Positions 1,622 to 18,746 are shown, numbered from the stretch's first letter. The stretch: 64,000 nt of DNA from a bacterium (GCA_016699105.1 CP064960.1:264727-328726), one strand, 5' to 3'. Program-made: numbers and translations. The notes: generated by a model from the sequence alone, not told the origin.

Positions 1622-2020
1622 CTATTGTAGCAGCTCGATCTTTAAGCCTGGCACCGTGCAACGAGCTAGGTGCTTGTCATTCGTCATAAATGTATCTGCC
1701 CTGACACTCATTGCCGTGGCGAGGTGAATGGCGTCACCAAGACCGATGAGTGGAGTGTGATGAGCCCGGAGCTTGGCGGCATCGATTAAAATGTGGCGGT
1801 CAATTGGCCTGAAGTTAAACGGCTGATCATCCAGAAAGGCTTGCGCAATTACGCGATGGCGCTCGGTCTGGAGACTTTGGTGTCCTAAAAGTTCGGCATA
1901 CACCAGCTCGCTGGCTGTACCTTGGGCGCCGGCTGCTCGCAGACAGGCGGCAGCGTGACGGCCAAACTCGTTATGGTCCTGCAGTACATAGATGAAGATG
2001 TTGGTGTCAAACGCTACCAT
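1622..2020 (-). CDS. vapC: PIN-domain toxin VapC
   Basis: N-terminal 'VAFDTNIFIY' with acidic residues typical of PIN nucleases; 132 aa; sits directly after a small AbrB-type ORF. Confidence 0.75.
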   Translation of the reverse strand: MVAFDTNIFIYVLQDHNEFGRHAAACLRAAGAQGTASELVYAELLGHQSLQTERHRVIAQAFLDDQPFNFRPIDRHILIDAAKLRAHHTPLIGLGDAIHLATAMSVRADTFMTNDKHLARCTVPGLKIELLQ

Positions 2021-2026
2021 GGCTGG

Positions 2027-2260
2027 CTACGACCGGTCCAGCTCGCGCCTCATGTGACGCTGATGGTCAATGGCGTCTTCCAGCAATACGCCTTTGAGTG
2101 TACCTTGGTACCTGTCGACAGGATCCTGCACAGTAAAGGTAATGCTGTGCTCGTTGACCGATTGGACATAGAGCTGTTGCCCTTTCTCCAGTGACAGTTG
2201 CCGCCGGGCTGCTTTCGGAATGACCACCTGGTAGTTATCTGATAATTTAACGGTATTCAT
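2027..2260 (-). CDS. vapB: AbrB/MazE-type antitoxin VapB
   Basis: 77-aa ORF immediately upstream of vapC with a swapped-hairpin-like N-terminus ('VKLSDNYQVVIPKAARRQL'). Confidence 0.6.
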   Translation of the reverse strand: MNTVKLSDNYQVVIPKAARRQLSLEKGQQLYVQSVNEHSITFTVQDPVDRYQGTLKGVLLEDAIDHQRHMRRELDRS

Positions 2261-2288: not shown

Positions 2289-2675
2289 TTATGCAAAACG
2301 TTTTAGAGTTTTAGTAGCTAGTCCGGTGGTATATACAGGAGTCGATACGTTCATGTTGCCCGACTTATTGTATTCTTGCGCGCCTATGGCTATGGCAGCT
2401 TCAATGCGATGCCAGTTAATTTGTCCCGTCAGATCGAGGTCATTGACTGGGTCTACCTGGGCGAAGCGGCCTATTTGGGATAGGTCGGTACGGGCTCCCA
2501 TGCTGCCCAACCCATGCCGTTGTCTGCAGCATTGGTGAGAGGGGGCGTAGGTAGTTCTATTTAGGGCGCAGCTAGTTAGACGATTGAGGTTGTCGTACGC
2601 TGGTACTTCGGTGCCCTTTCGGCGAGGACTTAATCTAGCGCACCCTAAGATGCCTGGCGTTTGCTGTCCAGCCAA
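2289..2675 (-). pseudogene. degenerate orphan RHS C-terminal remnant (core-end motif plus short variable tip)
   Basis: Encodes '...GARTDLSQIGRFAQVDPV...' matching RHS '[18 protein letters not shown]'. Nucleotides 2500-2522 (ctgcccaacccatgccgttgtc) are identical to 4901-4922. Confidence 0.45.
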
Positions 2676-3103
2676 GCTTCAAATCTATGCATATTTTTTG
2701 GGGAAGGTAGCGGCATAGTCCACATTGCCGACCAGTGTATGTTCTCGCCCAAATATTTCTTGGCTGCAGCCATAAATCTCATGTGAGCGTAAAAAGACGC
2801 GCAGGAAATCAGTATAATACCATAAATCAGCAATGATTTGACTATGTCACTCAGAATAGGCTGATATCTGAACAAAGTAGTTTCAACTAGAACTACAACC
2901 ACTAAGCATTGAAGCACTCTAAGAAGAATAAAGGCGCGGCGCTCCCAACTAGCAGCATCTCTCCCGAGCAGTTTTGTAAGGAGATTAAATGTCTCATTTC
3001 GCATACTCAAACCCATTTCTTTTAATACGAGGGACACATCTATCAATATACTACTGTTCAACGTTGCGCGATTGCACGCTATCTTATCGCCAATTAACTG
3101 CAA
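2645..3103 (-). CDS. hypothetical membrane protein (candidate immunity gene in the RHS orphan array)
   Basis: 152-aa ORF with a long hydrophobic helix; position only. Confidence 0.25.
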   Translation of the reverse strand: MQLIGDKIACNRATLNSSILIDVSLVLKEMGLSMRNETFNLLTKLLGRDAASWERRAFILLRVLQCLVVVVLVETTLFRYQPILSDIVKSLLIYGIILISCASFYAHMRFMAAAKKYLGENIHWSAMWTMPLPSPKNMHRFEAWLDSKRQAS

Positions 3104-3324
3104 TCAACTTAATAGCCAGCCAGCCGGACACCACGGTGATAAAAAATGATAATACTTGGCATAGCAACTTGAGAATATCGCTTCATAGCATTCGATTGAT
3201 CCAGATTTTTCAGTATCCGATTGCCGTTCTGTATCCAGTAAGCTAAGCAGACTAATGATGCAAGAAAGACCGACATCGATGCTATAAAAATACTCAGCAT
3301 ATCGTTCATTCAACTAACCCTTGT

Positions 3325-3731
3325 TCATTCGGTAAGACTTTGTAATAGCATCGCTATGCCCATGATAATCAATACCACACCAGTTACGGGACCGTATGCC
3401 TTTATTACCCGCTGTCGTTGAGGACTAACCTCAATTGTTTTCAATACTTCTTTTGTCATCCATTCTCTAAATATTATGCTGGCTACTCCGCCAAGGATTA
3501 AGAGGATCGAGTTCATTGTATTCATTAATATGATTCCATTAACTTTGAAATTGCATAGATAGCAAAAGCACTGCCCACAATTCGCAAAAATAAGTGTCCT
3601 TGGCGTATGTCTGCGTCGTAAGTTTTAATGCTTAGCATTGAGTCTCTCATGTCGCTCATTGTTTTTGTCGTTTGATATGGAAAGACGGCGAGAGTAGCTC
3701 CAAAGATAGCTAGTATTAAGTAAAATATCAT
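3325..3731 (-). CDS. two consecutive small membrane proteins (66 and 68 aa)
   Basis: ORFs 3525..3731 and 3325..3525 each carry 1-2 TM helices; function unknown. Confidence 0.25.
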
Positions 3732-3824
3732 AACAATTTCGCCTTACTCTAGAGGCTCCATAGCTTCATTACATAAATAGCTTGGCGTAAAGCTATCACA
3801 ATATATTTAGGCTTCGCTATATGT

Positions 3825-4157
3825 TTAGTGGCTACCTGAATGACTTCGACTCCAAGTATTAAGATGAAGCCATGTCTGAACACATACAATTGCAATAAAT
3901 ATTGCTAGCAGTACGATTGGCCAGCCTAAACCGACAAACGCTTGGCTTTCAAAACTCTTACCTAATTCATCAGCGCGTAAGGCCGCTTTAACAGTATTGC
4001 TTATAATGCCTGCGAAACTCAAATAGAGTAAAATAAGTATCAACTTCAAACCAATTGAGTATTTACCCTTACCAAATATTAATAGTGTTGTGCCCCATAC
4101 AACTACACAAATCATTGTAATTACGGCAATGATAGTTATTACGTCCCCAATGTACAT
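3825..4157 (-). CDS. hypothetical membrane protein (candidate immunity)
   Basis: 110 aa, three hydrophobic helices. Confidence 0.3.
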   Translation of the reverse strand: MYIGDVITIIAVITMICVVVWGTTLLIFGKGKYSIGLKLILILLYLSFAGIISNTVKAALRADELGKSFESQAFVGLGWPIVLLAIFIAIVCVQTWLHLNTWSRSHSGSH

Positions 4158-4180
4158 TATTTTTAATACCTTTCGTTAAA

Positions 4181-4486
4181 TTACGGATTGCAGCCACTTA
4201 ATTGCATACGTACCCAACTGACTTCAGGCGCATTATCATCGAGGTTCCAAGATTCTTTATATTCAGTAAAAAATAAACCTGGGTAGTTGGCATGACACTC
4301 GAATTGGTCATATAAACTCTGCGAGTACGGTGTATGACTTAACTGCAAAGCCTCACTAAATGCTCGTTCAGTATCCTCTCGAGAGTTTGACCTACCATAA
4401 GTTGTAGGTATGACTTCTAAGTAAGGAACGTTTGCTCTTGTTTTCCACTTAGCACTATTGATATATAGCGGCTTTTGGGGTGGCAA
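4181..4486 (-). CDS. hypothetical soluble protein (candidate immunity protein for orphan RHS tip)
   Basis: 101-aa ORF directly downstream of the orphan RHS cassette. Confidence 0.3.
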   Translation of the reverse strand: MPPQKPLYINSAKWKTRANVPYLEVIPTTYGRSNSREDTERAFSEALQLSHTPYSQSLYDQFECHANYPGLFFTEYKESWNLDDNAPEVSWVRMQLSGCNP

Positions 4487-4613
4487 AGGCTTATTAAGTT
4501 GGTTAAACGCATCACTTGCCCTTCGCTTAGATTCAGTTGTTGGTTCCTGCCTTGTATTTTTACAGCCTGGCTAGTAGAGACAGCTGTAGCGATAACACTA
4601 AATCCAAATGTGA

Positions 4614-5723
4614 CTATCGCGATAACCTGCCCTCCCCTGCCTTGATGTCATTATATAGTGCTGCGGCCCCTGCCTTAGCGTCATTGTAAAGCTGACCAGC
4701 CTTCGCTTTCATATCTTCCCACCAACCCCGACCAGAATAATCATTGAAGTTTACAGGATCATTCACATAGCTATATGCATTGTCCGTACCACCTTCTACG
4801 GGGTCGATACTGGTAAAGCGGCCAATGGAAGGTAAGTAGACCCTCGCGCCCATTTCAATGATGGGAATACTAAACATACTCTCGGCTTTGCGGGTGGGAC
4901 TGGCTGCCCAACCCATGCCGTTGTCACTAGCATTGGTGAGGGTAGTTTTGCTAGTACCAAAGGTGTTGCTGTTGAGAACTTGGCCAAAGGGATCGTAGAG
5001 CATGACGCTGGTGCTCGGTAGACCGGTGGCGGCTACTTGGATGGCTGTATCGCCATGGAAGTTTTTGAGGGAGTAGATAGGAGTGCCGTTTTTGACGGTA
5101 AGTGATACGCCTCCTGGAAGGCCAATGTATTTGTCGAGGGTGGTGCAGCTTGATTGGTTACTGGTGCTACATGTCAGCATAACACCACCGGCGTTGCGGT
5201 AGACTTTGTCGAGGACGGAGTTTCGATATTCTCGCTTGATGAGGACGGCACCACCGGCGGATTTGACGTACTCGGTCCAATTGGTGCCCTGCTGGATTTT
5301 GGTGTTTTGATCACTGGCGTCGTAGGTGAACTGGATGGGTGCACCGGCACCAGTAACTTGCGTGATGTTGCCGTGGTCGTCGTATGTGGGAGTGCCAATC
5401 TGAGAGTCAGTGGAGCTGAAGAGCCGGTCGGCCGCCGAGTAGCAGGATGTGGTGGTCGTGTTTTGAGAGTTGAGGGTATTGGTAATGCTCGTACTGGTTC
5501 GGTTGCCATTTTTGTGGGCATTGGCATTGTAGCCTGAGATACTCGTACAAGCAGCCTGTTGGGTACTGAAGCCGTATTGGTACTGCCAGTTGTCGATGGT
5601 CGTCTGAGTGAGCCGGCCGAGGGTGTCGTATTGGTAGGAGGCTCCGGCAGATTGGGCGCCTTTGGTGATGGTGTCTGAGGTAACGAGGCCTTTTTGGACT
5701 GAGAGACCGACAGTTTCGGACAT
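4614..5723 (-). CDS. orphan RHS C-terminal cassette (YD repeats, RHS core end, alternative short C-terminal tip)
   Basis: The 369-aa product is near-identical at protein level to residues ~1880-2230 of the 2446-aa RHS protein (starts '[17 protein letters not shown]', carries '[11 protein letters not shown]...[15 protein letters not shown]'). It then diverges into '[19 protein letters not shown]...'. Confidence 0.75.
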
Positions 5724-5915
5724 AGTGGCGCCATCCTCCTCAGCGCTGGCACGGCTGCTGCTGCATATTTGGTGCCGCTCTTACTACTGCCTGGCTCCAC
5801 ATGCCCTGTCGCTGGTGGTTTTGGCTTGTTTCAACTGGTCGTAGGTTAGCACTTTGTTCAAAGGGAACCTAGTGGCTGGCACCGGCGCCGTTATGCGGCG
5901 AGGCGGAGGCTAGTA

Positions 5916-6128
5916 TTAGGGCCTGATTTCGGCAAGAAGGTAATAGAGACCACCTATTGATAATGCGCTGCCGACAATAACATACATTATTCTTGTTATG
6001 ATACGTTCTCTATCGCCGAACTTTGAACCAAACATGTAATTTTGAGCTTTGATGTAGTAATTACTAATCCTGCCATTAAATATCACGAAGATTAACCCGG
6101 CGCAAATTTGAAGTAGTATCCAGAACAT
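5916..6128 (-). CDS. small two-TM protein, candidate cognate immunity protein of the main RHS toxin
   Basis: 70-aa ORF 28 bp downstream of the RHS stop; two hydrophobic helices. Confidence 0.35.
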   Translation of the reverse strand: MFWILLQICAGLIFVIFNGRISNYYIKAQNYMFGSKFGDRERIITRIMYVIVGSALSIGGLYYLLAEIRP

Positions 6129-6155
6129 ATCCTTATAATCCCACTTTATGTAAAG

Positions 6156-9100
6156 TTAATACAATACAAACGGACTGCCGACGCATTGCGTAAATACAGA
6201 CGCACCTCCAGGCAGCATGAGACCGTACTCTGCTTTCCGCGGATCAAGATCATTTCCTGACGAGACTCCGAAACCTGCACCCGCTGTCCATGAGGTGGTG
6301 CATCCCTCTGTGGGCTCACTAGGGGAATAAGTTATATTTAGGCCTTTTCCGGGTGTTGAAGGACCAGTGCCCCAATATGGCCTTGCGCCTTGGTTATTCA
6401 CCATAACACCTGCCCCCGCACCCCAGGGTATCGGTATGGCGGTACCTGGTACTGGTATAAGAAACCCATATGATACGCCAACATTAATGTAACCCCACCC
6501 AGACTCCCCTGGACTGGGATTGCTAGGTGGTAGAGATCTTACGATAGAGCCGCTTTGTATGTCCCTTGCAGTTTGGCGATTTTGCTGCTGTGTATTTGGT
6601 GCTGCTCGTACCGTTGCCTGTCTCCACACACCCTGGTTGATAGTAGCACTTATCGGAGCAGGAGCAGCATTGACCGTAGTTTTCTGGGGAGCACCTTGAA
6701 GCAGATAGTCTGTGTTGGCTGAGCAATAAACACCAGGGACACATCTGCCTGAATAATCGTTTGAGCTAACAGGGTCGTTTACATAGCTATAGGAGTTTAC
6801 TGAGCCGCCTTCGACTGGATCCACGCTCGTAAACCGGCCCACACTTGGCAGGTATACTCGGGCACCCATCTCCACTACTGGAATTGAAAACATCGATTCA
6901 GATTTACGTGCCGGGTCAGCCGCCCAGCCCATGCCATTGTCACTGGCATTAGTGAGCGATGTCTTACTCGTACCAAACGTATTACTCGCCAGTACCTGCC
7001 CAAACGGGTCATACAACATGACGGCGGTGGAAGGTAGGCCATTGGCACCCACCTGGATGGCAGTATCACCATGGAAGTTTTTGACTGAGTACACGGGTGT
7101 ACCGTTCTTGAGCGTTAAACTCACACCACCCGGAAGGCCGATGTATTTATCCAATGTGGTACATGAGCTCTGATTACTGGTGGAGCAGGTGAGCATGACC
7201 CCACCGGCATTACGATAGACTTTGTCGAGCACCGAGTTGCGGTATTCGCGCTTAATGAGCACGCTGCCGCCAGCACTCTTCACATACTCCGTCCAATTGG
7301 TGCCCTGCTGGATCTTGGTGTTCTGGTCACTGGCATCGTAGGTAAACTGGATGGGAGTACCGGCTCCGGCCAGTTGGGTAATGTTGCCGCGGTCGTCGTA
7401 GGTAGGGGTACCAACCTGGGTGTCGGTAGAACTGGCCAGCCGGTCGGCGGCGGAGTAGCAGTAGTTACTGGTAGTGGTACTGCTGGTAAGTGTGTTCGTG
7501 ACCGCAGTACTCGTCCGGTTGCCGTTCTTGTGAGCATTGGCGTTGTAACCAGGGGTGCTGGTACAAGCGGCTTGTTGCGTCCCAAAGCCGTATTGGTACT
7601 GCCAGTTGTCGACCGTAGCCTGAGTCAATCTCCCGAGGCCGTCGTACAGGTAGCTGGCGCCGGCGGTCTTGCCGCCTTGGGTGAGGCTGTCACTGGTAAC
7701 CAGGCCTTTTTGGACTGACAGGCCGACAGTCTCGGATATGGTGGTATTGTCGGCAAAGGTGAAGACCGAGCCAGTGGTGCGTTGGAGGTTGTCTCGTGTG
7801 ACTTGGGTCAGGCGCAGGGTGTTGGTGCCGTTGGTGGCCTGTGGGTAGTTCACGGTCGCCAAGCGACTGTAGCTGTCGTAGGTCATGGTGGCGTAGGTCG
7901 TGCCATCCAAGGCGTAACTGGTGACTTGGCTGAGGGTGTTGTAGGTAGGAACCTCGGTGCCCTTGAGGCTGGTGGTTTGACTAACCCGTCCGAGTGTATC
8001 GTAGGTGGTAGATGTGGTATAGCCGAAGACATCGGTAGTGTTGGTGGTGCGGCCCAAGAGGTCGATGGTGACGCTTGAAGTACCGGTGACTGAGTCAGTG
8101 GAAGAACCGTTTAGGGGGTTGCCCGAGACAGCATAATCGTAGCTGATTGTCCGGCCAGTCCGGCCTGAAATTGTCGGTGTGATGGTCTGCGAGACGCGGC
8201 CGCGGCTATCGTAAGTGGTACATGACCAGGGGTCGGTTTGATTTGTTGCGCCAATCATCCGCGAGGCCACGATGCGGCCAGCATCGTCGTAGATGACTTC
8301 GGTTTTTCGGCCGCTGAGCGTACCGCCACCATCTGGGTCCTGCTCGGTCTTGAGTTTGCTCATTCCGGCTTGTTTATAGCTTTCGGTGGTGCCTGCGGTA
8401 CACGGGTTGTCGGCTGTGTCGGTGGCGGCATAGTAGCTGTAGGTAGTAGCTGTACCACCAGGGAGCGTTTTACCGGTCTGACGTAGGTATGAGCCGGTGG
8501 CGCCCGGTGTTTCGTAGGTACTCGAACTAGAATAGTTGAGGCCGGTGGGATCGGCGGTTGCGGACGTAAGTAAACCAAGCTCGGGATTGGTGCCATAATT
8601 GTTGGTTGCTGTAGTATTACCTACTTGAGAATCATAGACTTTGTTGGTTGTACTCAAGCCGTAGCCAGGACTCCAGCCCCAGTTTTGGATGGCGCAGTCA
8701 TAGTATGCGTCTGGTCGGGTGACACAGAGGTCGAGGCGGGCGTCACTAAGGGTGCTGGGGGCAGTGTATTTTTCGATCCTGATACGGTGCCAGGAGTCGG
8801 CGGTGTTGACGTAATTGCCTTCAGTAAGCTGACGGTACCCGGTATCACGCCAGTCACCGACGATAAGCTGATCGTCGATATAGAGCAAAAATCCATCATC
8901 GGTATAGGCACGCCATTTGTAAGTACCTGTTTGCATGAGGTGGACCCACCCAGTCACGCGCGCGCCCCACCCTTTGCCGGAGTCGGGGGTGATAGGCTGG
9001 CCAATGCCATAGCCCGGCCAATTAGTGCCCCAAATGGCATATACGCCTTTATCAGCAGGGTTAAGTCCGGTTTGGTGCTTTCTGGGCGTGCCGACTAGGG

Positions 9101-12100
9101 TTTTAGTGGTTGGGTCTTCGTTATAGAAGGCGGCAGCGAGGGTGTTGATGCCTTCATCGTAGGTAGTTTGTGATCGAGGTGTTTGATTGGTATATGTAGC
9201 AAACGGCGCCCGATAGGCATTGCTCGGGTTTGCAGTCGTACTAACCGGAGCTGTTGGTCGCTTCCATACGGGCAGTCCGGCTTCATTGTAAATATTGGCT
9301 TGGCCGGTATTTTCAATGACTGTGCGACAATATGATCCGCCGACAGTATTGCTTGCCCAATAATCGGTAGCTCCGTTGTAGAGTACCAGGTTGCAGTCTG
9401 ATTGCATCAAGAGATGCGTGACAGCATGACCACCTGTCTGGCTACTCCAAACGGGTCCGGATGGTCCATATACTACGAGATTCCCATCGGATTGTAAGGC
9501 GAGACTGAAACGGCCATCTTGCGACATGAGGTAGCCACCCGGATACATAAACGAATTGGTAGACAAGACTCCTTTGGGAAACCACGCTGCTGGCGCGGGT
9601 CCGTATTGGTCAGTCGGCCGGTCGGCATAGTCATAGGCGATGGTGGAGCGCATACCTGTAGGATCGGTGGTAGCGACTACGAGGTCTTTGAGCTGATCCC
9701 ATTCGGTAGTGGTGGTGAGATCGGCAGCAGATGTATCGGATAATGTGCGGTAGATACCATCGTAGGTAATTTTGCGGCTAAAGCCATTTGGTTCCGCTGC
9801 CCCTGTGACGTGGATGCGTGATTCTCCTACTCGGTATTCATACGTGCGAGCCAGGCGGCTAGCACCGGCAGTGGCGGCGGGTAAGGTTGCACTAACAACC
9901 CGACCGAGGACATCGAAGGTATAGTCAGTACGTTCAGTGCCATCTTGGTTTCTGACACTAGCTGTAATTGCATCGTTTGCGAGACTATCACGAATGGAAT
10001 TGATGCGGCCTAAGTTGTCATAGCCATAATCGGTGAGGTCGGTTCCGGGCAATTCTATGCGCGCCAGACGAGGTATACCGCCTGAATCATTTGCATAAAA
10101 GAGTTTGGTTTGACGTCCATCGGAAGTGGCGACGGCACATAACATGCCCGAGGGTGTACTAACGAATCCACCGGGAACTGCCGGGCAGTTGGCATTACCC
10201 TGATAGTATAATTTTGCCCAACGGTCGGTGGAGATCCCGTCTGTTACCTGATCGAGCCGGGCAGGACTACCAGAGTAGGAATACGTTAAAGCTGCTGGAC
10301 GCAAGTCGTCTACTGGCATCGAGGTTGAACGCAACGTGCCATCGGAGCCGAAAATATAGGTTCGCCCATCGGTGTCTTGCAAAGTGATCGTACCGTCACC
10401 GGCGCGTGAGAGCTGTCCTGCTTCCCCGGAAGGCGGCGTAAAAACTGACCCCGAATATTTGTATTCATGCGAATTTCCTGACGTGTCGCGCAGCGTGACA
10501 CTATTGGTGTTGATGACTGCAAAATCGTAATTGACGTTATCGTCGATACCAAGCGTCCAGCCATCAGGTACCACTTGAGCTTTGGGTAAAAGCCAATCGC
10601 TTGGCACTGGCAGACCTTTGTCGATACCAGGGCCATCGACATACAAGCCAACATTGGCGGCTCCGGTGACTTCCTTGTACTCAACGGTAATTTGGGTGGT
10701 GTCACCGGCATTGGCAAATGATACCGTATTTGTTGCCCAGGTGGGCGTAGTGGTGGCGCCGCTCGACCATGTGTCGACCTGAGTTGTGCCGCCAACAATT
10801 ACCTTAGCCCCGTCATCTGATTGGGCGCCAAATTTGTAATTGCCGGCTTGGGGTGCCTTGAAGTAACCAGTCCAGCGCACCACAAAGTTGTCTGTGGGTC
10901 CTCCCGGTAACGGTGAGCCGTTGCCCCAATCTTGACTAGGGCTTGTATCTGATCGGACGAGAAACGTTCCGTTAGTATCAGTGTAGCTGGTAGGTAGGGT
11001 GGCGCCGTTGTAATAGCGTCCGATGAGTCCGTGGGGTGTGGCAACAGACCGGATACCAGTTTGCAACCAGTCAGCCGGTATGGGTCCGGCAGGTACTTTG
11101 CCATCAGTTGACCGCGCCAAGAATTGTACTGAGGCAGAGCCAGTAGTTTCAGCGTACTCGAGCTTTACTTTGACGATCTGTCCGGCAGTTAAGGCAACGT
11201 TACCACCCCACAAGCCGCTTTGTGATGTATTCCAAGAGTCTAGGTACGATTGGTCATCTAGATATAAACGCGCTCCATTGTCGTGGGCGAGCCCGAAATT
11301 ATAGGTTTTAGTTTGAGGCGCTACAAAGTAGCCAGTCCAACGAATTAGAAAATTATCTGTAGTTACAATACCTGGATAGGGACTACTGGATCCCCAATTG
11401 TAGTCGATACCATTATCTATTTTCGTTATTGCGGCTGCGGTACCGGCAGATGGGAATGTCCGAGTAGCTGACGGGTCATTATAGTATTCACCTACAAGGC
11501 CTGCCCGTGAACGCCATGGAGAATTGTAATCTAGGCCAATACCGAGAGTACCGCCTAATGCGGCAATGCCATGGGATTTAGCACTGGTAGTAGCGTTGCC
11601 GGAAGCTAAGTCGACGCTTAGGCCGCCAGCTGAATCATAACTTTGCGTACTATCTTGCCCACTTCGCAGGTCTACCCGAAATGATTGGGTAGGACCATAC
11701 GTTGGTATAACTCCGGTGCGATTATCCCAAGTTTGAACCTGCCAATAGTAGGTTGTGCCATCGCGCAAGATGTTATCGGGTATGGTCCATTTATTTGTGG
11801 TATAACCTGAGTCGGCAATGATTCCGCCAACTGAATTGGTGCCAGTTTTAACGGTGCCAATAACAAAACGGTAATTGACGGGATCTCCATCGGCATCGGT
11901 AGATGTGCTGGCCGTGAAACTCGGCTGCGTGGTAACGACGGTCTGGCCTTCGAGCGGAGCCAGTCCACTGCTGGCTGTGGGCAAGTTGGTGTAGTTGAAC
12001 CACACCTGAGTCTTGTCGTAGGCAAACTGTTTGTATGAGTAATAATTATTCTGATTTTCCTCGCCCCAGACCATAAACCAGGCGTTAGGGTCACCAGAAG

Positions 12101-13496
12101 CTGCCCGTTCCCGGTACATGTCGGTGGTATTGATGTCATAGGCGTTGGTATTCCATTGGGTAGCCGAGGGAGTGTTAGATGCAACACAACTAAAGCAGTT
12201 GCCGGTGTTGAGTTTGGTCGTAATGTAATGGCCATCGCAGTTGCCATATGCGGGATTGCTACAGGTGGGCATTTCAACATGGAAATTGGCTTCTATGAGG
12301 TATTTGGTCGGTGAAACAAATTGCGAGTAATCTACATGGTAGGCAAAGCGCCAATATTTGTTACTAATTGAACCAGTCGAATTACCGCAGCCTTGTCCGG
12401 CATAGCAGATAAATCCGTCAGACTTGTAATTTACGTAATTGTTGCTGGGGCCGCTTTGGACAACAAAGGTTGGATCTACAACCAATGGGAAGTCGGCAGT
12501 TGCACGGTCATTTAACCACTTTGGGTCGACGGTGATTGTCAGCCGTTGGCCTTTGAGTTTTTGACTAACGTATGGCTCAGCACCGATGATACCTTCGGTT
12601 TGAGTAGCAATGGTAGGTGCAGGAATAACGAAATCTTTGAGATTACCGTCGAGTTTGAACCAACCTGCTGGACGGTCAGCAACAGGCGTGAGAGAGGTGC
12701 CTGTTATATCAAAATTGAACGTGTTTGAAGCGAGTCGGCTTTTGATGATGATGTGTTCGCGTAGCTCTGACCCAAGTACGGCATACATGAGATCAATACC
12801 CGGCCAGGCATTGCGATATGTAACAGTTTGAACGCCATCTGATTCTGAGACTACCGGGTCAACGGCTGCTGCTCCAGCGGGTTTTAGGCTAACAGTTTGG
12901 TCGCCTTGAACGAGTTCAAGATTGGTGGCGCTGACTTTGCCGAACCGGACCTGCCACGAGTTCGCTCGACTTTTCCAACGGCCATCAGAACTATCTTGAA
13001 CTAGGGTGGTGTCTACTTTTTGCCAAGACCCTGCAGTGTCACGAAAGTTTGATGCCTGAAACGTTTCAACCGCAGTCTTGGTTCCATCCGCATTCTGATA
13101 AACAGTACGGTGGCCGGTGCGATCTTCGGGGAGCGTGGCTACCCGTGTTAGGTCACGTGGTCGACCTTTCGTGGCTATATCTCGATCTTCATCGAGTTGT
13201 TGCTGCAACGACTTTGAAATGGGCTGGGCTTTGGCGGCTGGTTCGATGGCATCGCTGGCGGTAATTTGGTCGGTAGTGTCTAGAGCGGCTAATGATTGTG
13301 GAGTGCGGGATTGTTGTCGTTGATAATATGACAAGAGCGCCGGGAGGCTCGTACCACTAATGCGAGAATTAGTATTGTGGCAATAAAACGGCGGACAGGG
13401 ACATGGGTGAATTTGAACGACCAATGCCGACGCAGCATAGTACACCTCAACAACACTTATTACTTGCAGCATAAGCTTATTCTCAGAGTGGTGCAA
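6156..13496 (-). CDS. giant RHS/YD-repeat polymorphic toxin with bulb-type lectin and three PA14 domains; C-terminal ~200-aa variable toxin domain
   Basis: Uninterrupted 2446-aa ORF. PA14-like segments at 'GLVGEYYNDPS...IRWTGYF', 'GLIGRYYNGATL...VRWTGYF' and 'WVHLMQTGTYKWRAYTDDGFLLYIDD'. Bulb lectin: 'SQDGRFSLALQSDGNLVVYG...QSDCNLVLYN'. Many YD repeats ('YTYDxxGR'). RHS core end '[34 protein letters not shown]' followed by a Cys-containing unique tail. The N-terminal start is uncertain, because an alternative-frame ATG near 13438 gives a signal-peptide-like start. Confidence 0.85.
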   Translation of the reverse strand: MHHSENKLMLQVISVVEVYYAASALVVQIHPCPCPPFYCHNTNSRISGTSLPALLSYYQRQQSRTPQSLAALDTTDQITASDAIEPAAKAQPISKSLQQQLDEDRDIATKGRPRDLTRVATLPEDRTGHRTVYQNADGTKTAVETFQASNFRDTAGSWQKVDTTLVQDSSDGRWKSRANSWQVRFGKVSATNLELVQGDQTVSLKPAGAAAVDPVVSESDGVQTVTYRNAWPGIDLMYAVLGSELREHIIIKSRLASNTFNFDITGTSLTPVADRPAGWFKLDGNLKDFVIPAPTIATQTEGIIGAEPYVSQKLKGQRLTITVDPKWLNDRATADFPLVVDPTFVVQSGPSNNYVNYKSDGFICYAGQGCGNSTGSISNKYWRFAYHVDYSQFVSPTKYLIEANFHVEMPTCSNPAYGNCDGHYITTKLNTGNCFSCVASNTPSATQWNTNAYDINTTDMYRERAASGDPNAWFMVWGEENQNNYYSYKQFAYDKTQVWFNYTNLPTASSGLAPLEGQTVVTTQPSFTASTSTDADGDPVNYRFVIGTVKTGTNSVGGIIADSGYTTNKWTIPDNILRDGTTYYWQVQTWDNRTGVIPTYGPTQSFRVDLRSGQDSTQSYDSAGGLSVDLASGNATTSAKSHGIAALGGTLGIGLDYNSPWRSRAGLVGEYYNDPSATRTFPSAGTAAAITKIDNGIDYNWGSSSPYPGIVTTDNFLIRWTGYFVAPQTKTYNFGLAHDNGARLYLDDQSYLDSWNTSQSGLWGGNVALTAGQIVKVKLEYAETTGSASVQFLARSTDGKVPAGPIPADWLQTGIRSVATPHGLIGRYYNGATLPTSYTDTNGTFLVRSDTSPSQDWGNGSPLPGGPTDNFVVRWTGYFKAPQAGNYKFGAQSDDGAKVIVGGTTQVDTWSSGATTTPTWATNTVSFANAGDTTQITVEYKEVTGAANVGLYVDGPGIDKGLPVPSDWLLPKAQVVPDGWTLGIDDNVNYDFAVINTNSVTLRDTSGNSHEYKYSGSVFTPPSGEAGQLSRAGDGTITLQDTDGRTYIFGSDGTLRSTSMPVDDLRPAALTYSYSGSPARLDQVTDGISTDRWAKLYYQGNANCPAVPGGFVSTPSGMLCAVATSDGRQTKLFYANDSGGIPRLARIELPGTDLTDYGYDNLGRINSIRDSLANDAITASVRNQDGTERTDYTFDVLGRVVSATLPAATAGASRLARTYEYRVGESRIHVTGAAEPNGFSRKITYDGIYRTLSDTSAADLTTTTEWDQLKDLVVATTDPTGMRSTIAYDYADRPTDQYGPAPAAWFPKGVLSTNSFMYPGGYLMSQDGRFSLALQSDGNLVVYGPSGPVWSSQTGGHAVTHLLMQSDCNLVLYNGATDYWASNTVGGSYCRTVIENTGQANIYNEAGLPVWKRPTAPVSTTANPSNAYRAPFATYTNQTPRSQTTYDEGINTLAAAFYNEDPTTKTLVGTPRKHQTGLNPADKGVYAIWGTNWPGYGIGQPITPDSGKGWGARVTGWVHLMQTGTYKWRAYTDDGFLLYIDDQLIVGDWRDTGYRQLTEGNYVNTADSWHRIRIEKYTAPSTLSDARLDLCVTRPDAYYDCAIQNWGWSPGYGLSTTNKVYDSQVGNTTATNNYGTNPELGLLTSATADPTGLNYSSSSTYETPGATGSYLRQTGKTLPGGTATTYSYYAATDTADNPCTAGTTESYKQAGMSKLKTEQDPDGGGTLSGRKTEVIYDDAGRIVASRMIGATNQTDPWSCTTYDSRGRVSQTITPTISGRTGRTISYDYAVSGNPLNGSSTDSVTGTSSVTIDLLGRTTNTTDVFGYTTSTTYDTLGRVSQTTSLKGTEVPTYNTLSQVTSYALDGTTYATMTYDSYSRLATVNYPQATNGTNTLRLTQVTRDNLQRTTGSVFTFADNTTISETVGLSVQKGLVTSDSLTQGGKTAGASYLYDGLGRLTQATVDNWQYQYGFGTQQAACTSTPGYNANAHKNGNRTSTAVTNTLTSSTTTSNYCYSAADRLASSTDTQVGTPTYDDRGNITQLAGAGTPIQFTYDASDQNTKIQQGTNWTEYVKSAGGSVLIKREYRNSVLDKVYRNAGGVMLTCSTSNQSSCTTLDKYIGLPGGVSLTLKNGTPVYSVKNFHGDTAIQVGANGLPSTAVMLYDPFGQVLASNTFGTSKTSLTNASDNGMGWAADPARKSESMFSIPVVEMGARVYLPSVGRFTSVDPVEGGSVNSYSYVNDPVSSNDYSGRCVPGVYCSANTDYLLQGAPQKTTVNAAPAPISATINQGVWRQATVRAAPNTQQQNRQTARDIQSGSIVRSLPPSNPSPGESGWGYINVGVSYGFLIPVPGTAIPIPWGAGAGVMVNNQGARPYWGTGPSTPGKGLNITYSPSEPTEGCTTSWTAGAGFGVSSGNDLDPRKAEYGLMLPGGASVFTQCVGSPFVLY

Positions 13497-13697
13497 TGAT
13501 AGTATTTGGTATGAAATTTAATCAGAAGTCACGTACGACCAGCCGGGCTGCCAGGCCTTGCGGGGCGCCAGTCTTCGGCGACGGCCTGGGGCCAGGTGCG
13601 GTGGCGGAGGAGGACTTCGAGGGCGAGTTGTGGGGCATGATGACCCATGATGGCGATGTGCTGGCCGTCGTAGTTTTTCTGTAAGAATTCGACGAAA

Positions 13698-14063
13698 CTA
13701 TGGATGCGGTGCTCGACGTCCTGGTAGCTTTCGCCGCCGGGGGAAGGGCGTGGTGAAATAGTCGGCTAGGTTGGCTTTGAAGGTGTCGGGTTGGCCATTA
13801 AAATCGCCGTAGTTGCATTCGCGCAGGCGCTTGTCTTGGATGATGTGATATTGGTAGCCAAAGCCAATTTCGGCTGATTCGACCGCCCGCTTGAGATCGG
13901 AGCTGAAAATAGCGTCAAACTTGATGTGTTTGACTTGCTTGCCGAGATCGTTGGCTTGCTTGCGACCAGTGGGCGACAATTCGCCGGGGAGCCAGCCGGT
14001 GGCTCGGTCTTCTTCGTCATCGAACGTAGTACCGTGAACGAAATAGGTTATGTGGACACTCAT
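13698..14063 (-). CDS. histidine phosphatase (phosphoglycerate mutase-like) family protein, probably C-terminally frameshifted
   Basis: 'YFVHGTTFDDEEDRATGW...SPTGRKQA' resembles the 'RHGE(T/S)xWN' fold, with R replaced by V. The ORF ends in an odd Pro/Arg tail and the downstream frame continues in a plausible phosphatase sequence. Confidence 0.4.
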   Translation of the reverse strand: MSVHITYFVHGTTFDDEEDRATGWLPGELSPTGRKQANDLGKQVKHIKFDAIFSSDLKRAVESAEIGFGYQYHIIQDKRLRECNYGDFNGQPDTFKANLADYFTTPFPRRRKLPGRRAPHP

Positions 14064-15972: not shown

Positions 15973-17346
15973 ATGCAAGATGTGAAGGGGTTGTGGCAAT
16001 CTGTGCTGGGGGACTTGGAGACCACCATCTCTGAGGCTATGTTTAAAACCTGGTTTAAGCAGACCGACATTCTGACCAAGGAAGATGGTCATGTTGTAGT
16101 GGCAGTGCCTAATGCCTTTGCGCAAAAGTGGCTGCGGGATAAATTCCATGGTGAAATCAAAACCGCACTGGCCCGGGCTGACCGGACTATTCAGACGGTT
16201 GATTACAAAATCATCCAAGTACCCAAGGAGCCAGTTAAGCCCGGCCGAGTAGCTCCGGCGACTTTCAAAAAAACGACGGTGGAGCAAATCGCCATTCCGA
16301 CGACGCCAGCCCCGAAAACTAATTTGAACCCACGTTATACCTTCGCCACATTTGTGGTGGGCGGCAGCAATGATTTCGCCCATGCGGCCGCTCAAGCTGT
16401 GGCTAAGAATCCGGGGACTAAATATAATCCCCTCTTTATATATGGTGGCGTGGGTCTTGGTAAGACACATCTCATGCAGGCCGTGGGTAATGAAATTGTG
16501 CACAAGGACCCCAGTAAGCGCATCGAGTATGTGAGTATCGAGAGTTTTACGAACGAATTTATTAACGCTATTCAAAAGAAAAAAAATGACGCGTTTGCCG
16601 ACAAGTACCGCGGGGTCGACGTACTCATAATTGATGATATGCAGTTTTTGGCGGGTAAAGAAAAAACCCAGGACGAATTTTTTCATACCTTTAATGCCCT
16701 CCACCAAGCCAACAAGCAGATTATTATCTCCAGCGATAAACCACCTAAACTCCTGACAATGCTCGAAGATCGCTTGATCAGCCGCTTTGAAATGGGTATT
16801 ACGGTGGACATCCAACCGCCCGACCTTGAGACTCGCTCGGCTATTATTCAAAACAAGGCCGCTTCTCAAGGTATGGTGTTGCCGCTCGAAGTCGTTGACT
16901 TCATCGCCCGTCACGCTCAACATAATATCCGAGAACTTGAGGGAACACTCACCAAGGTATTGGCGGAGCTAGAACACAACAAGGGTACGATGTCGCTGGA
17001 GCGGGTACGATCACTATTGGCTCATGATGCGGCAGCCCGGCCCCGACTACGCGTCACCAATGCCAAGACCATCATGGAACGGGTGGCTCGATATTTCGAT
17101 CTGACAGTAGCCGACCTAGAAGGACCAAAACGCGACAAAGAAATCGTGGTGCCGCGGCAAATCGCTATGTACCTGATGCGAACCGATCTCGATTTGAGTT
17201 TTCCCAAAATTGCAGCAGCGGTCGGTGGGCGTGACCATACTACCGCCATGCACTCAGTCCAAAAGCTCGAGAAACTGGTCGACAATGACGATACGTTACG
17301 TAGTGACATAACAGCCATTCGCGAACAACTCGGATTGGTAAATTAG
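15973..17346 (+). CDS. dnaA: chromosomal replication initiator DnaA
   Basis: 457 aa; Walker A 'GGVGLGKTHL'; AAA+ sensor motifs; C-terminal DnaA-box-binding HTH ('IAMYLMRTDLDLSFPKIAAAVGGRDHTTAMHSVQKL'). Confidence 0.95.
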   Translation: MQDVKGLWQSVLGDLETTISEAMFKTWFKQTDILTKEDGHVVVAVPNAFAQKWLRDKFHGEIKTALARADRTIQTVDYKIIQVPKEPVKPGRVAPATFKKTTVEQIAIPTTPAPKTNLNPRYTFATFVVGGSNDFAHAAAQAVAKNPGTKYNPLFIYGGVGLGKTHLMQAVGNEIVHKDPSKRIEYVSIESFTNEFINAIQKKKNDAFADKYRGVDVLIIDDMQFLAGKEKTQDEFFHTFNALHQANKQIIISSDKPPKLLTMLEDRLISRFEMGITVDIQPPDLETRSAIIQNKAASQGMVLPLEVVDFIARHAQHNIRELEGTLTKVLAELEHNKGTMSLERVRSLLAHDAAARPRLRVTNAKTIMERVARYFDLTVADLEGPKRDKEIVVPRQIAMYLMRTDLDLSFPKIAAAVGGRDHTTAMHSVQKLEKLVDNDDTLRSDITAIREQLGLVN

Positions 17347-17621
17347 GTTGGAAATATGGGGGGAGAACTACGTGGAAAAGCCTGAGGATAGAGTGGGGAC
17401 AGTCTGTGGGAGGAATGGTAGTCGTCCACAAGACAGCAACCGACGACTCCAAAATATACACAAGGTTGTGCGCAGGTACTCCCGAGGATATACCCAAGTT
17501 GTACGCAAGTGCTGTGACCATTCCGAGCTTACCGTGAGCCACATTTGGACTTTTACCCAGAATCCACAGGACCTATGATTATGACTATGATTTATAGAGT
17601 AAAAAATAATAGGGTCAGAAC
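17347..17621. promoter_or_regulatory. dnaA-dnaN intergenic region with DnaA-box-like sites
   Basis: 'cgtccacaag' (~17427) and 'gaatccacagg' (~17560) are 7/9 matches to TTATCCACA. Confidence 0.3.
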
Positions 17622-18746
17622 TTGGGGAAAGATTTTATGAAACTTAGCCTAACACAAGAGAATCTTTCGAAGGCCTTGGCAAGCGTTGGTAGAGTGGTAT
17701 CGACGCGAGCAAGTTTGCCCGTGTTATCTCATGTATTACTAGCAACTGACGGGAATCGTTTACGCTTGTCGGCTACAAATTTAGAAATTGGTATCAACTA
17801 TTGGATTGGATCAAAGGTGGAAGAACAAGGTGCCGTGACGGTACCAGCTCGGTTAGTGAGTGAGTTTGTATCCAGTCTGCCTCATAGCACCATTGAGTTG
17901 TCGGCTGAAGATGCCATTTTGGTAGTAAAAGCTCCCAATTATGAATCGAAAATCAACGGTATAGCGGCAGAGGAATTTCCGGAGATTCCGACGATCACCG
18001 CGGATCCAGTTTTGCAGGTCGAAGCGTCGGCGCTGCGGGAGGCTTTGGTTCAGGTGGTAGTGGCAGCTTCCGCGGACGAGGCGCGCCCAGTACTGGCGGG
18101 GGTATATTTATACACCGAAGAGGATAACTTGTACCTAGTGGCAACCGATTCGTATCGTTTGGCGGAAAAAAGACTACCGCTGGCTAAGGTGCCGGACGAG
18201 GAGCTCAAAGTGATTGTGCCAGCCCGAACCATGCAGGAGCTGATGCGCTTATTGGCGGATGTGACGGAGCCGGTCGAGCTGTACATGGATGAAAATCAGG
18301 TAATGTGGCGGCTGGGTGATATTGAATTGGTGTCCCGGTTGATTGAGGGACAATTTCCGCCGTATCGGGGGATTTTACCAGAGCAAGCCGAAACATCGTT
18401 TGAGATAGATGTGTCTGAATTTATGCGTATTACCAAGGTGGCCAGTTTATTTGCCCGGGAAAGTGCTGGCAGTGTGAAGCTCGAAGTGCAAGCTGAGGGA
18501 CAGGTGCGCGTGGTTAGCGGTGATACTGAAGTGGGTGGCAATACGTCGGCGGCTGATTGTGAAGTCAGTGGTGATGACGCCGTGGTTTCCCTGAATGCGC
18601 GCTATTTGACTGACGCTCTGGGGGTGATGAAAAGCCAGGTAGTGATGTTTGCAACCAGTGGTAAAGACAAAGCCTGTGTGTTATCACCGGCTGGTGAAGA
18701 GGCGGCGGACGATTATCTTCACATCATCATGCCGCTGCGAACATAA
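17622..18746 (+). CDS. dnaN: DNA polymerase III beta sliding clamp
   Basis: 374 aa; begins 'MKLSLTQENLSKALASVGRVVSTRASLPVLSHVLL'; three-domain clamp length; gene order after dnaA. Confidence 0.95.
   Translation: MGKDFMKLSLTQENLSKALASVGRVVSTRASLPVLSHVLLATDGNRLRLSATNLEIGINYWIGSKVEEQGAVTVPARLVSEFVSSLPHSTIELSAEDAILVVKAPNYESKINGIAAEEFPEIPTITADPVLQVEASALREALVQVVVAASADEARPVLAGVYLYTEEDNLYLVATDSYRLAEKRLPLAKVPDEELKVIVPARTMQELMRLLADVTEPVELYMDENQVMWRLGDIELVSRLIEGQFPPYRGILPEQAETSFEIDVSEFMRITKVASLFARESAGSVKLEVQAEGQVRVVSGDTEVGGNTSAADCEVSGDDAVVSLNARYLTDALGVMKSQVVMFATSGKDKACVLSPAGEEAADDYLHIIMPLRT

Follow-up and report, generated by a model that had tools for sequence, protein, structure and literature searches.

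Solved Rhs cocoons (RhsA 7q97, Rhs1 7pq5, Tse5 8cp6, and Salmonella bongori Rhs 8qjd) share with the protein described here a YD cocoon, an RHS core, a variable C-terminal toxin, a downstream immunity gene, and orphan modules. In contrast to the T6SS Rhs proteins, our protein, which is encoded in a 64,000-nt stretch of bacterial DNA (the window), has no PAAR, VgrG, or T6SS link and appears to be exported by means of an N-terminal Sec signal-anchor. Moreover, folded PA14 and lectin domains break up the wall of its cocoon, which is preceded by a PA14 dyad and, further upstream, by a long beta-sandwich region. Shells carrying a large folded insert are known from TcB-TcC and from mosquito SGS1 (6h6g, 4igl, 8fjp); the insert is a beta-propeller in TcB and consists of receptor-type domains in SGS1. 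Fold matches liken our protein to these shells. However, the TcB insert is a gate that docks onto TcA, whereas the inserts in the family of our protein are carbohydrate-binding folds that vary between alleles.

WapA and other Gram-positive Rhs toxins are wall-associated. WapA of Bacillus subtilis and Streptococcus suis (PMC12704120) resembles our protein as a Sec-dependent, surface-associated Rhs toxin of monoderms whose C-terminus is polymorphic and which comes with an immunity gene, but it bears N-terminal wall-binding repeats and lacks a PA14 dyad and shell-inserted domains. The lectin-like bacteriocins (LlpA/putidacin L1 and pyocins L1 and L2) have the same MMBL beta-prism-II fold and QxDxNxVxY sites as our lectin (PDB matches at E 1e-18 to 1e-15), and they bind a surface glycan of the target via that fold. 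They are tandem-lectin proteins of ~270 aa, and the lectin makes up the entire toxin, whereas the window protein has a single lectin as an accessory of an Rhs cocoon. The umbrella toxins of Streptomyces (PMC11062931, PMC13274773) are likewise secreted, polymorphic actinobacterial toxins, whose swappable UmbA lectins set the target range on hypervariable surface glycopolymers; their diversified lectins give species-specific targeting (PMC13274773). They lack an Rhs shell, however, and assemble from several proteins, with the lectins as subunits of their own, whereas our protein has its lectin fused in one polypeptide. The PA14 dyad of RsgI3 from Clostridium thermocellum (6qe7), an extracellular polysaccharide-binding unit (PMC6852018), matches our PA14a and PA14b, although RsgI3 is an anti-sigma factor sensor and not a toxin. 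Finally, the saccharibacterium "T. rhizospherense" encodes a 2,487-aa RHS/YD/PA14/galactose-binding protein with an adjacent immunity gene (Starr et al. 2018, PMC6031116). It matches the window protein in phylum, size, domain list, and neighboring immunity gene, and almost certainly belongs to the same family. That protein received a single-sentence mention, beyond which we found nothing in the literature on PA14-bearing Rhs toxins; a lectin, an in-shell placement, or a comparative analysis did not form part of it.

Architecture of the Rhs Protein

The host genome is a 1.32-Mb saccharibacterial (TM7) MAG whose DnaA is 78% identical to that of Ca. Saccharimonadia, and on this basis the producer is an epibiont-type organism, as had been proposed. 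The gene and its parts are as follows (window coordinates; amino acids of the ORF).

6156-13496, minus strand: Rhs toxin ORF, ~2,400 residues (C-terminal domain to aa 2446)
13330..13438, minus strand: true start and N-terminal signal-anchor, ATG 13438, MLRRHWSFKFTHVPVRRFIATILILAL(S)GTSLPALLSYYQ
13358..13359, minus strand: 1-nt deletion, window GCATT-AGTGG versus GCATTAAGTGG, N-terminus split in two frames
11517..13214, minus strand: chain of beta-sandwich/FN3-like domains, aa 95-660, family-specific
10617..11507, minus strand: tandem PA14 dyad, PA14a and PA14b (Pfam)
11124-11507, minus strand: PA14a, aa 664-791, PF07691 E 2.1e-20, 73.4 bits
10617-11033, minus strand: PA14b, aa 822-960, PF07691 E 7.9e-19, 68.3 bits
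9585..10556, minus strand: first third of the YD/Rhs shell, aa 981-1304, Pfam RHS_repeat E 1.8e-5
9246..9581, minus strand: bulb-type (beta-prism II, monocot-mannose-binding) lectin, aa ~1306-1417, shell insert
8706-9176, minus strand: PA14c, aa ~1441-1597, PF07691 E 3.8e-6, 27.2 bits, embedded in the shell
6747..8669, minus strand: second part of the YD shell, the other two thirds (aa ~1610-2160), plus RHS-associated core (aa 2162-2250)
6156..6746, minus strand: polymorphic C-terminal toxin domain, aa 2251-2446, Gly-rich, rare family

The protein thus runs from a hydrophobic signal-anchor through a beta-sandwich region of ~550 residues, the PA14 dyad, the Rhs/YD cocoon with its excursion, and the RHS core to a Gly-rich C-terminal toxin. 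We consider it fairly probable that the protein is a polymorphic Rhs toxin which is exported by Sec and anchored in the membrane, has glycan-recognition modules that can be swapped and a C-terminal toxin of a rare type, and is paired with a two-TM immunity protein. Searches of Pfam and NCBIfam found no PAAR, VgrG, LXG, or WXG domain in it, and a T6SS-type N-terminus (PAAR, VgrG-binding, or clade domain) is replaced by the signal-anchor, which has a positively charged n-region and then a hydrophobic helix (Kyte-Doolittle maximum 2.08, residues 18-36). The original prediction had regarded the N-terminus as ambiguous, with a signal-peptide-like start at ATG 13438 in another frame. This is the true start: in L084, a short-read contig of a near-identical strain, the ORF runs uninterrupted from there and includes the signal-anchor. 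In homologs, too, a TM segment precedes the motif LPxLxxYxxQQ(A/S)R(I/T)P; the N-terminus is a TM anchor in some and a cleavable signal peptide in others.

The region between the signal-anchor and the PA14 dyad was modeled well by AlphaFold (model m32a02d58f002, pLDDT 87.7, pTM 0.82). Foldseek matched it weakly to FN3 arrays and to the Epf adhesin and to nothing else, and the two Pfam hits (DUF7948 and Ig_Rha78A_N) were sub-threshold; neither search recognized an enzymatic fold in aa 95-660. Nor did Pfam and NCBIfam find any cell-wall-binding family in the window protein, whose N-terminal region folds as generic beta-sandwiches. All three predicted PA14 domains were recovered near the positions proposed for them, with scores above the Pfam gathering threshold of 24 bits. 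The family profile matched the RsgI3 dyad over its entire length (6qe7, E 2.9e-50). PA14c is kept by nearly all family members, and in the otherwise divergent allele L082 it is 82.5% identical.

A Cocoon Interrupted by Lectin and PA14 Domains

The lectin and all three PA14 domains had been placed before the YD-repeat shell. For PA14a and PA14b this is correct, and they are the only ones of the four that precede it. The lectin and PA14c, on the other hand, lie ~320 residues into the shell, with RHS_repeat matches on either side: Pfam found RHS_repeat in three segments, with hits at aa ~1180-1210, ahead of the lectin, and past aa 1812. The second part of the shell (RHS_repeat E 1.4e-7) and the RHS-associated core that follows it (TIGR03696, 42.6 bits against a cut-off of 32.5) together end in ...GRFTSVDPVEGG...NDPVSSNDYSGR. 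In the model, the first third of the shell (aa 981-1304) consists of beta-hairpins throughout.

No Rhs core was found at E <= 0.001 when the whole protein was compared with the PDB by phmmer, and the family profile gave marginal matches to Tse5 and RhsA; a fold search was therefore needed. The shell model (aa 981-2170; pLDDT 86.5, pTM 0.76) aligned over its full length with T6SS Rhs cores (8qjd at E 9e-33, 7q97, and 8cp6), teneurins, and TcB-TcC. The first part (~320 aa) and the second part with the core (~650 aa) together approximate the length of Rhs cores (chains of 964-1084 residues). As modeled, this is a single cocoon of normal size, interrupted past its first third by an excursion of ~290 residues that comprises the bulb lectin and PA14c. 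According to the model and fold comparison the insert has PA14 and lectin folds, and there is no beta-propeller in the Rhs protein. From sterics and the optional nature of the lectin, we infer that both domains sit on the cocoon exterior.

The Bulb Lectin

The original prediction was right about the existence of the lectin and about both motifs that it quoted, while its coordinates (9350-9700) were ~100 nt too high. The Pfam B_lectin profile (PF01453), by which the domain was to be checked, did not recover it: the lectin fragment scored 18.1 bits against a gathering threshold of 32.4, and the whole protein gave no match. NCBIfam putidacin LLB (NF033557) matched partially, over profile positions 8-51 (E 5e-14; 52.3 bits against a cut-off of 275). 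In the PDB, phmmer matched many MMBL lectins (E 1.2e-19 to 1e-13), including the SCAfet lectin (1.2e-19), pyocin L1 (1.6e-18), and the M. smegmatis lectin 4oit (1.7e-16), and the AlphaFold model superposed on 4pdt and 1xd5 with TM scores of 0.81 and 0.86 (rmsd 1.6 A). Two of its QxDxNxVxY sugar-site motifs are exact and the third is degenerate. Based on these matches, the superposition, and the motifs, the domain is identified, from sequence and model, as a bulb lectin despite its sub-threshold Pfam score. By analogy with pyocin L1, its ligand could be rhamnose or another sugar.

C-Terminal Toxin and Neighboring Modules

Downstream of the Rhs gene lie a candidate immunity gene and a region of orphan modules (2289..5723, minus strand):

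5916..6128, minus strand: candidate immunity protein, 70 aa, two predicted TM helices, directly downstream of the toxin
4614-5723, minus strand: orphan Rhs C-terminal fragment with a different tip
4181-4486, minus strand: DUF2599 ORF
3825-4157, minus strand: TM ORF
2289-2675, minus strand: further Rhs remnant

Neither Pfam nor a word-index search gave a match to the C-terminal toxin domain, and an exhaustive search of 1.84 billion representatives found seven weak relatives. It aligns with the C-termini of the homologs P0001, P0006, and L059, and across the family the C-termini are variable past the conserved core. In L059 the related toxin is followed by a homologous 73-aa two-TM ORF; the two-TM ORF thus co-occurs with this type of toxin. 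The orphan fragment is 73% identical to the main Rhs gene at the DNA level over 1 kb. The predicted autoproteolysis motif, NDPVSSNDYSGR, is a variant (NDYSGR versus DPxGL), although its D and G hardly vary across the family. Our guess, from the Gly-rich sequence and the TM immunity candidate, is that the toxin may act on membranes.

These features bear on whether the protein is a weapon at all. Its topology, with an N-terminal TM segment and an extracellular YD shell, is teneurin-like; teneurins and a "teneurin-like protein" were among the fold matches, and the PA14 dyad is nearest to the polysaccharide sensor RsgI3 (PMC6852018). Accordingly, it might be an adhesin or sensor that attaches to a host as teneurins do or binds environmental polysaccharides as RsgI3 does, its toxin tip being secondary or vestigial. 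We consider this improbable, because the conserved cleavage residues of the core, the C-termini that vary past it, the immunity-like gene conserved with the toxin type, and the orphan C-terminal modules typify an active polymorphic toxin locus.

Family and Allelic Variation

A scan of GTDB representative genomes, seeded with a 15-sequence alignment (a 34-sequence alignment was too divergent as a seed), found no fewer than 105 related loci, the majority of them in Saccharimonadia and Actinomycetota. The architecture had been called unusual, but it is not unique: one member of this family had already been noted by Starr et al. 2018 (PMC6031116). The family is widespread and uncharacterized, with sugar-binding modules plugged into the cocoon wall. 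One homolog, P0003, was not placed on any contig. The lectin occurs in ~10 of the ~70 loci that span the insert site, at three different positions relative to PA14c and in different lineages, and every lectin-bearing member has two or three intact QxDxNxVxY motifs. The type-1 insertion is common to Saccharibacteria and Actinomycetota. Other members carry FG-GAP, DUF346, DUF1349, CBM11-like, or Laminin_G_3 (LamG) modules in the shell, and at the locus of our gene a sister strain with 97-99% identity has a different, lectin-less allele.

Judged by sequence, glycan docking by the PA14 and lectin modules, as first proposed, is plausible. It is strengthened by the swapping of modules between alleles, by the three independent gains of the lectin with its sugar motifs kept, and by the other carbohydrate-binding folds that occupy equivalent sites. 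Probably, the sugar-binding modules serve to pick the target cell. It is unlikely, in our view, that they instead bind the producer's own wall glycans and retain the toxin on its surface, with no part in target recognition. The wall-binding repeats of Bacillus WapA and the wall association of Gram-positive Rhs toxins offer a precedent for such retention, and homologs with cleavable signal peptides require some means of it; however, the window protein and most Saccharimonadia homologs already have a TM anchor, and alleles with and without the lectin in near-identical strains, together with the wide variety of modules, fit diversifying target recognition better than a constant own wall.

Proposed Mode of Action

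Under target recognition, the Rhs protein would be exported by Sec and held on the producer surface by its N-terminal helix, while the stalk and the PA14 dyad would push the cocoon outward. The PA14 domains and the mannose-type lectin, on the cocoon exterior, would bind surface glycans of a neighboring monoderm cell, the likely targets being actinobacterial hosts or competitors. Actinobacterial envelopes are rich in mannose-containing lipoglycans. The encapsulated toxin, released by autoproteolysis, would then be delivered and damage the target membrane, and the two-TM protein would shield the producer. The variant cleavage motif, a C-terminal domain that matches no recognizable fold or family, and a lectin ligand that could be rhamnose or another sugar count against this scheme. 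The site embedded in the shell would be a swappable recognition cassette. More tentatively, we hypothesize that the wall excursion (PA14c, with or without a lectin, propeller, ConA-like domain, or CBM) may be a dedicated recombining receptor-binding cassette, which determines the targets or hosts that Sec-exported Rhs toxins reach and is exchanged between Saccharibacteria and their host phylum Actinomycetota, the type-1 lectin insertion being found in both groups; we regard this as a possibility that we would not yet favor.

If true, the epibionts own a glycan-addressed weapon or attachment device against actinobacterial envelopes, and this would be the first description of receptor-binding domains within a bacterial Rhs shell. 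The family offers a testable handle on how monoderm Rhs toxins find and enter their targets and on how Saccharibacteria recognize and exploit actinobacterial hosts: one polypeptide with exposed, naturally swapped glycan-binding modules, and natural pairs of alleles, one with and one without the lectin, in near-identical strains. As homologs exist in culturable Streptomyces and Kribbella, genetics, glycan arrays, and lectin swaps are feasible, as with the umbrella toxins.

The Frameshift in the Deposited Sequence

A frameshift had been suspected at ~13340-13360, and blastn of L084 against the window bore this out: the window is one base short between 13359 and 13358, where L084 has one base more and a single frame throughout. 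Two homopolymer indels in the adjacent gene do not occur in a 99.84% identical short-read contig, and two further large proteins of the same genome are each in three pieces but whole in other assemblies. Because of the indels in the neighboring gene, the likeliest source of the frameshift, as far as the sequences tell, is an error of assembly and not biology, and therefore the Rhs gene is probably intact in the source organism. Programmed -1 frameshifting was rejected: the site is without a slippery heptamer, and the related strain is simply one base longer.

A genuine frameshift in a decaying locus would agree with the N-terminus split in two frames and with the absence of the protein from the protein database, where its neighbors are present. 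Yet the other 2,400 codons are open, the related strain shows no break at this position, and the indels and fragmented proteins just described likewise speak against decay; we regard a pseudogene as very improbable. As deposited, the Rhs gene in the window is frameshifted, and this was counted against our best explanation. Homopolymer indels damage the gene calls of this MAG, and its apparent pseudogenes should not be taken at face value.

Domain Composition of the Rhs Protein

The locus is organised as is usual for polymorphic Rhs toxins, with the following features.

Features of the Rhs locus in the window
13522-14063, minus strand, histidine-phosphatase gene immediately upstream of the Rhs gene, in three frames
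6156-13496, minus strand, Rhs gene, a single ORF of 2,446 codons
6156-6746, minus strand, C-terminal toxin, the last ~196 residues, Gly-rich (GYINVGVSYG...GAGAGVMV...GCTTS...)
5916-6128, minus strand, two-TM ORF of 70 aa
4614-5723, minus strand, orphan Rhs C-terminal fragment of 369 aa with a short alternative tip
4181-4486, minus strand, DUF2599 ORF (E 7.5e-17)
3825-4157 and 2645-3103, minus strand, small TM-protein ORFs downstream of the toxin
2289-2675, minus strand, degenerate Rhs remnant, part of the orphan array 2289-5723

Residue i of the Rhs ORF corresponds to window position 13496-3(i-1). We found that three PA14 domains exceeded the Pfam gathering score of 24 bits, namely PA14a (aa 664-791, 73 bits), PA14b (aa 822-960, 68 bits), and PA14c (aa about 1441-1597, 27 bits). 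PA14a and PA14b also matched GLEYA above its 26.2-bit threshold, while the match of PA14c was weak (15.3 bits). RHS_repeat was detected by Pfam in three separate segments of the protein, and the RHS-associated core model of NCBIfam matched aa 2162-2250 (42.6 bits against a cut-off of 32.5). The lectin reached only 18 bits with the Pfam B_lectin model. Despite this score, sequence comparison leaves no doubt about its identity: in a phmmer search of PDB sequences it matched the SCAfet lectin (E 1.2e-19), pyocin L1 (E 1.6e-18), the Mycobacterium smegmatis lectin 4oit (E 1.7e-16), and some thirty more monocot-type lectins, and the putidacin lectin-like bacteriocin model of NCBIfam matched partially at aa 1310-1353. 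Its QxDxNxVxY motif is perfect in two sites (QSDGNLVVY and QSDCNLVLY), and the third subdomain is degenerate. The modelled lectin superposed on 4pdt and 1xd5 with TM-scores of 0.81 and 0.86, respectively (rmsd 1.6 A). Thus, all four domains of the original prediction, three PA14 domains and a bulb-type lectin, are real according to Pfam, PDB phmmer, and fold superposition, and their coordinates had been placed correctly within about 100 nt.

Together, PA14a and PA14b make up a dyad like the one in the solved structure of RsgI3, a polysaccharide sensor of Clostridium thermocellum (Grinberg et al. 2019, PMC6852018); the family profile spanned both domains of 6qe7 (E 2.9e-50). The 550 residues upstream of the dyad were confidently modelled as a chain of beta-sandwiches (pLDDT 87.7, pTM 0.82), which in fold comparison resembled, weakly, only FN3/Ig arrays and the Epf adhesin.

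Insertion of the Lectin and PA14c into the Cocoon Wall

The four domains had been thought to precede the YD-repeat shell (cocoon). This holds for PA14a and PA14b and fails for the lectin and PA14c, since Pfam RHS repeats occur at aa ~1180-1210, N-terminal to the lectin. We modelled aa 981-2170 with AlphaFold on the basis of 34 family sequences (mean pLDDT 86.5, pTM 0.76). The model ran from a beta-hairpin block (990 to 1302) through the lectin, a short disordered linker, and PA14c to a second hairpin block starting at about 1615. Complete Rhs cocoons aligned across the entire model (~1,260 columns), including Salmonella bongori Rhs 8qjd (E 9e-33), Pseudomonas protegens RhsA 7q97, Tse5 8cp6, Photorhabdus laumondii Rhs1 7pq5, teneurins, and TcB-TcC. 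The hairpin blocks comprise about 320 and 650 residues, which sum to one ordinary Rhs core length. Because RHS repeats lie upstream, cocoons align end to end, and the two blocks add up to a single core, the lectin and PA14c are a roughly 290-residue excursion that leaves the cocoon wall after about its first third. This excursion would face outward, because the cavity must house the ~196-residue toxin, the ligand has to be able to reach the lectin, and most relatives do without a lectin.

The N-Terminal Frameshift and the State of the Assembly

The N-termini of homologues consist of a basic stretch, a hydrophobic helix, and then the motif LPxLxxY(N/Q)xxQ(A/S)R(I/T)PxAL. In the window, the helix is encoded in the frame of the ATG at 13438, and the main frame encodes the motif (SLPALLSYYQRQQSRTPQSL). 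Independent short-read contigs of the same population were retrieved via the adjacent S49-peptidase gene. Contig L084 was 97.5% identical to the window overall and near-identical at the Rhs N-terminus, which it encodes without interruption (MLRRHWSFKFAHVPVRRFIAAILILALSGTSLPALLSYYQ...). It reads GCATTAAGTGG where the window reads GCATT-AGTGG, and one base is absent from the window between 13359 and 13358. The frameshift suspected here was therefore correctly called. The repaired N-terminus had a Kyte-Doolittle maximum of 2.08 (residues 18-36), and it is therefore a signal-anchor.

The lesion could belong to a genuine pseudogene, but the indel evidence makes this unlikely. The histidine-phosphatase gene is broken twice, near 13742 and 13565, each time by a single-base error in a homopolymer run (C5 and C4); short-read contig L085, 99.84% identical to the window, differs by exactly these two homopolymer indels and encodes an intact histidine phosphatase of 180 aa. 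Moreover, two large hypothetical proteins on the minus strand are each split into three ORFs, at 25543-29260 (860, 121, and 280 aa) and at 32808-~36030 (494, 117, and 198 aa), while their cluster-mates in other assemblies (at least 90% identity) are unbroken, with lengths of 1,239 and 1,076 aa. On these sequence comparisons, the Rhs lesion very probably arose during assembly. Frameshift errors are widespread in this MAG, and its 'pseudogenes' are therefore suspect. The Rhs protein was not found in the protein collection while its neighbours were, suggesting that the gene was annotated as a pseudogene. An additional G-run indel was seen in the intergenic region near 13448, just upstream of the Rhs start.

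The juxtamembrane motif, in the form LPxL(I/L)xxY(N/Q)xxQ(A/S)R(I/T)PxAL, follows the helix at window ~13270-13340 (minus strand). It is conserved in Saccharimonadia and several actinobacterial members (P0002-P0013, L007, L009, and L010) and may be a sorting or processing signal; in other members, helix and motif are replaced by an ordinary cleavable signal peptide. In a Saccharimonadales homologue (L005, 104-4594), the N-terminal ~60 residues are Pro/Arg-rich where relatives show the TM helix and QQARIP, which from the sequence looks like another frameshift.

Toxin Tip and Putative Immunity Gene

The core residues VDP...DPxxxxD(Y/L)xG are kept in the family alignment. The C-terminal toxin domain matched no Pfam family, and a search of 1.84 billion representative proteins gave just seven weak relatives, so it represents a very rare, unnamed family. 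It could be aligned with the C-termini of family members P0001, P0006, and L059. At L059, a two-TM ORF of 73 aa comes after the Rhs gene and is a homologue of the 70-aa ORF in the window. That such a rare toxin travels with a conserved ~70-aa two-TM protein suggests that the toxin acts on the membrane and that its partner is a membrane immunity protein. Farther downstream, the orphan Rhs fragment shares 73% DNA identity with the main gene across 1 kb, and the tips differ. The orphan tip and the DUF2599 ORF may be halves of a single toxin that another indel has divided.

Taxonomic Distribution and Module Exchange

A protein search returned 33 full-length relatives with identical module order, including proteins of Kribbella, Streptomyces, Nocardia, and Dactylosporangium and one paralogue in the MAG of the window. 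A scan of one genome per species confirmed 105 loci, from which 79 distinct loci were retained, mostly from Saccharimonadales/Saccharimonadia MAGs, with others from Actinomycetota (Streptomyces, Kribbella, Rhizocola, Lentzea, and Acidimicrobiales). Homologues occur in the culturable Streptomyces sp. SID13031 and Kribbella caucasensis. Starr et al. 2018 (PMC6031116) mentioned a rhizosphere saccharibacterium in which an immunity gene adjoins the gene for a 2,487-aa RHS/YD/PA14/galactose-binding protein. Given these relatives, loci, and the published mention, the architecture is no one-off; it is a recognisable, unnamed, and uncharacterised family. The lectin-bearing homologue at L001 (11300-20288, on the contig of P0005) lies in an actinobacterial-type context with HTH_31/DUF5753/DUF397 regulators (61.5% GC). 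It adjoins TrwB-like, Replic_Relax, and DUF932 genes of a conjugative element, through which the family may be transferred.

Nearly every member has PA14c, and few have the lectin. The spacing from GPAPxxWF to YDExIxxLAAAYY is about 16 residues in most members, and about ten loci carry a lectin-sized insert. Relative to PA14c, the lectin occupies three positions: before the PA14c linker in the window protein, in L007 (its closest relative, 69% identity), and in P0005, P0006, and P0014 from actinobacterial contexts; after the first PA14c strand in L004b, L006, L008, L011, and L013; and deeper within PA14c in L025. Every lectin copy retains two or three exact QxDxNxVxY motifs. In other members the shell holds different folds, among them an FG-GAP propeller, DUF346 repeats, DUF1349 (ConA-like) units in twos or threes, a Laminin_G_3 domain, and three CBM11-like units whose weak match stays below the threshold (18.1 bits, cut-off 27). 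These alternative folds use the lectin/PA14c site and at least two more insertion points.

Variation was also found between alleles. The flanks of L082, a contig of a sister strain, are 96.8% and 99.3% identical to those of the window, and its Rhs allele (2,259 aa) lacks the lectin and begins with a cleavable signal peptide. In this allele, PA14c is 82.5% identical to that of the window protein and the remainder 27-44%. In the paralogue P0003 (IPG36_05275, same MAG, outside the window), PA14c and the shell part following it (YDb) were 78% and 80% identical to the window protein, and the remainder 38-54%. This contrast with the N-terminal half suggests, at the sequence level, that the paralogues recombined. 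Repeated independent acquisition, kept binding residues, substitution by other carbohydrate-binding folds, and allele-level swapping argue that the modules are recognition devices, variable and under selection, carried by a delivery scaffold that is otherwise conserved.

The Rhs cassette is a strain-variable island (window 2398-13527, L082 4157-12073) with conserved flanks, His_Phos on one side and a MazE/PIN pair on the other, and the L082 island has a different toxin tip and different small downstream ORFs. P0003 has no lectin and stops at 2,007 aa within the shell, possibly cut off by another assembly indel.

Proposed Mode of Action

The protein is a polymorphic toxin of the Rhs type with swappable carbohydrate-binding modules built into its cocoon wall, and its family is common to Saccharibacteria and Actinomycetota. 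Domain inventory, domain order, split shell, signal-anchor, and the toxin/immunity-like gene pair are established. Beyond these, the toxin would be exported by Sec and retained by its N-terminal helix, with the PA14 and lectin modules displayed outward to dock onto glycans of a neighbouring monoderm cell; the toxin would then be freed by autoproteolysis and act at the membrane. WapA is held on the producer's own wall, and the main rival is that the modules likewise tether the toxin to the producer. The presence of a TM anchor and the variability at the allele level make such tethering the less probable reading. Considering its hallmarks of a polymorphic toxin, the protein is less likely to serve for adhesion alone, as a teneurin would. 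The delivery and targeting role originally proposed was supported in part. Lectin-like bacteriocins are a near functional precedent for such docking, and the nearest are the Streptomyces umbrella toxins, whose species specificity is determined by diversified lectins that bind hypervariable surface glycopolymers (PMC11062931, PMC13274773). The protein adds no new principle to toxin biology and offers a clean, testable system in which to study how the Rhs toxins of monoderm and CPR bacteria recognise their targets.

Organism and Genomic Setting

The DnaA of the window was closest to proteins of Ca. Saccharimonadia/Saccharibacteria (78% and below), with which the epibiotic lifestyle guessed from the lectin and PA14 domains is consistent as far as the taxon goes. 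The distance from the Rhs gene to dnaA and dnaN (15973-18746, plus strand) is 2.5 kb, which places the Rhs locus beside the replication origin region. The window also encodes a TraG/VirB4-like ATPase (29267-30817, minus strand), and the MazE/PIN pair (VapBC-like) is at 1622-2260 (minus strand).
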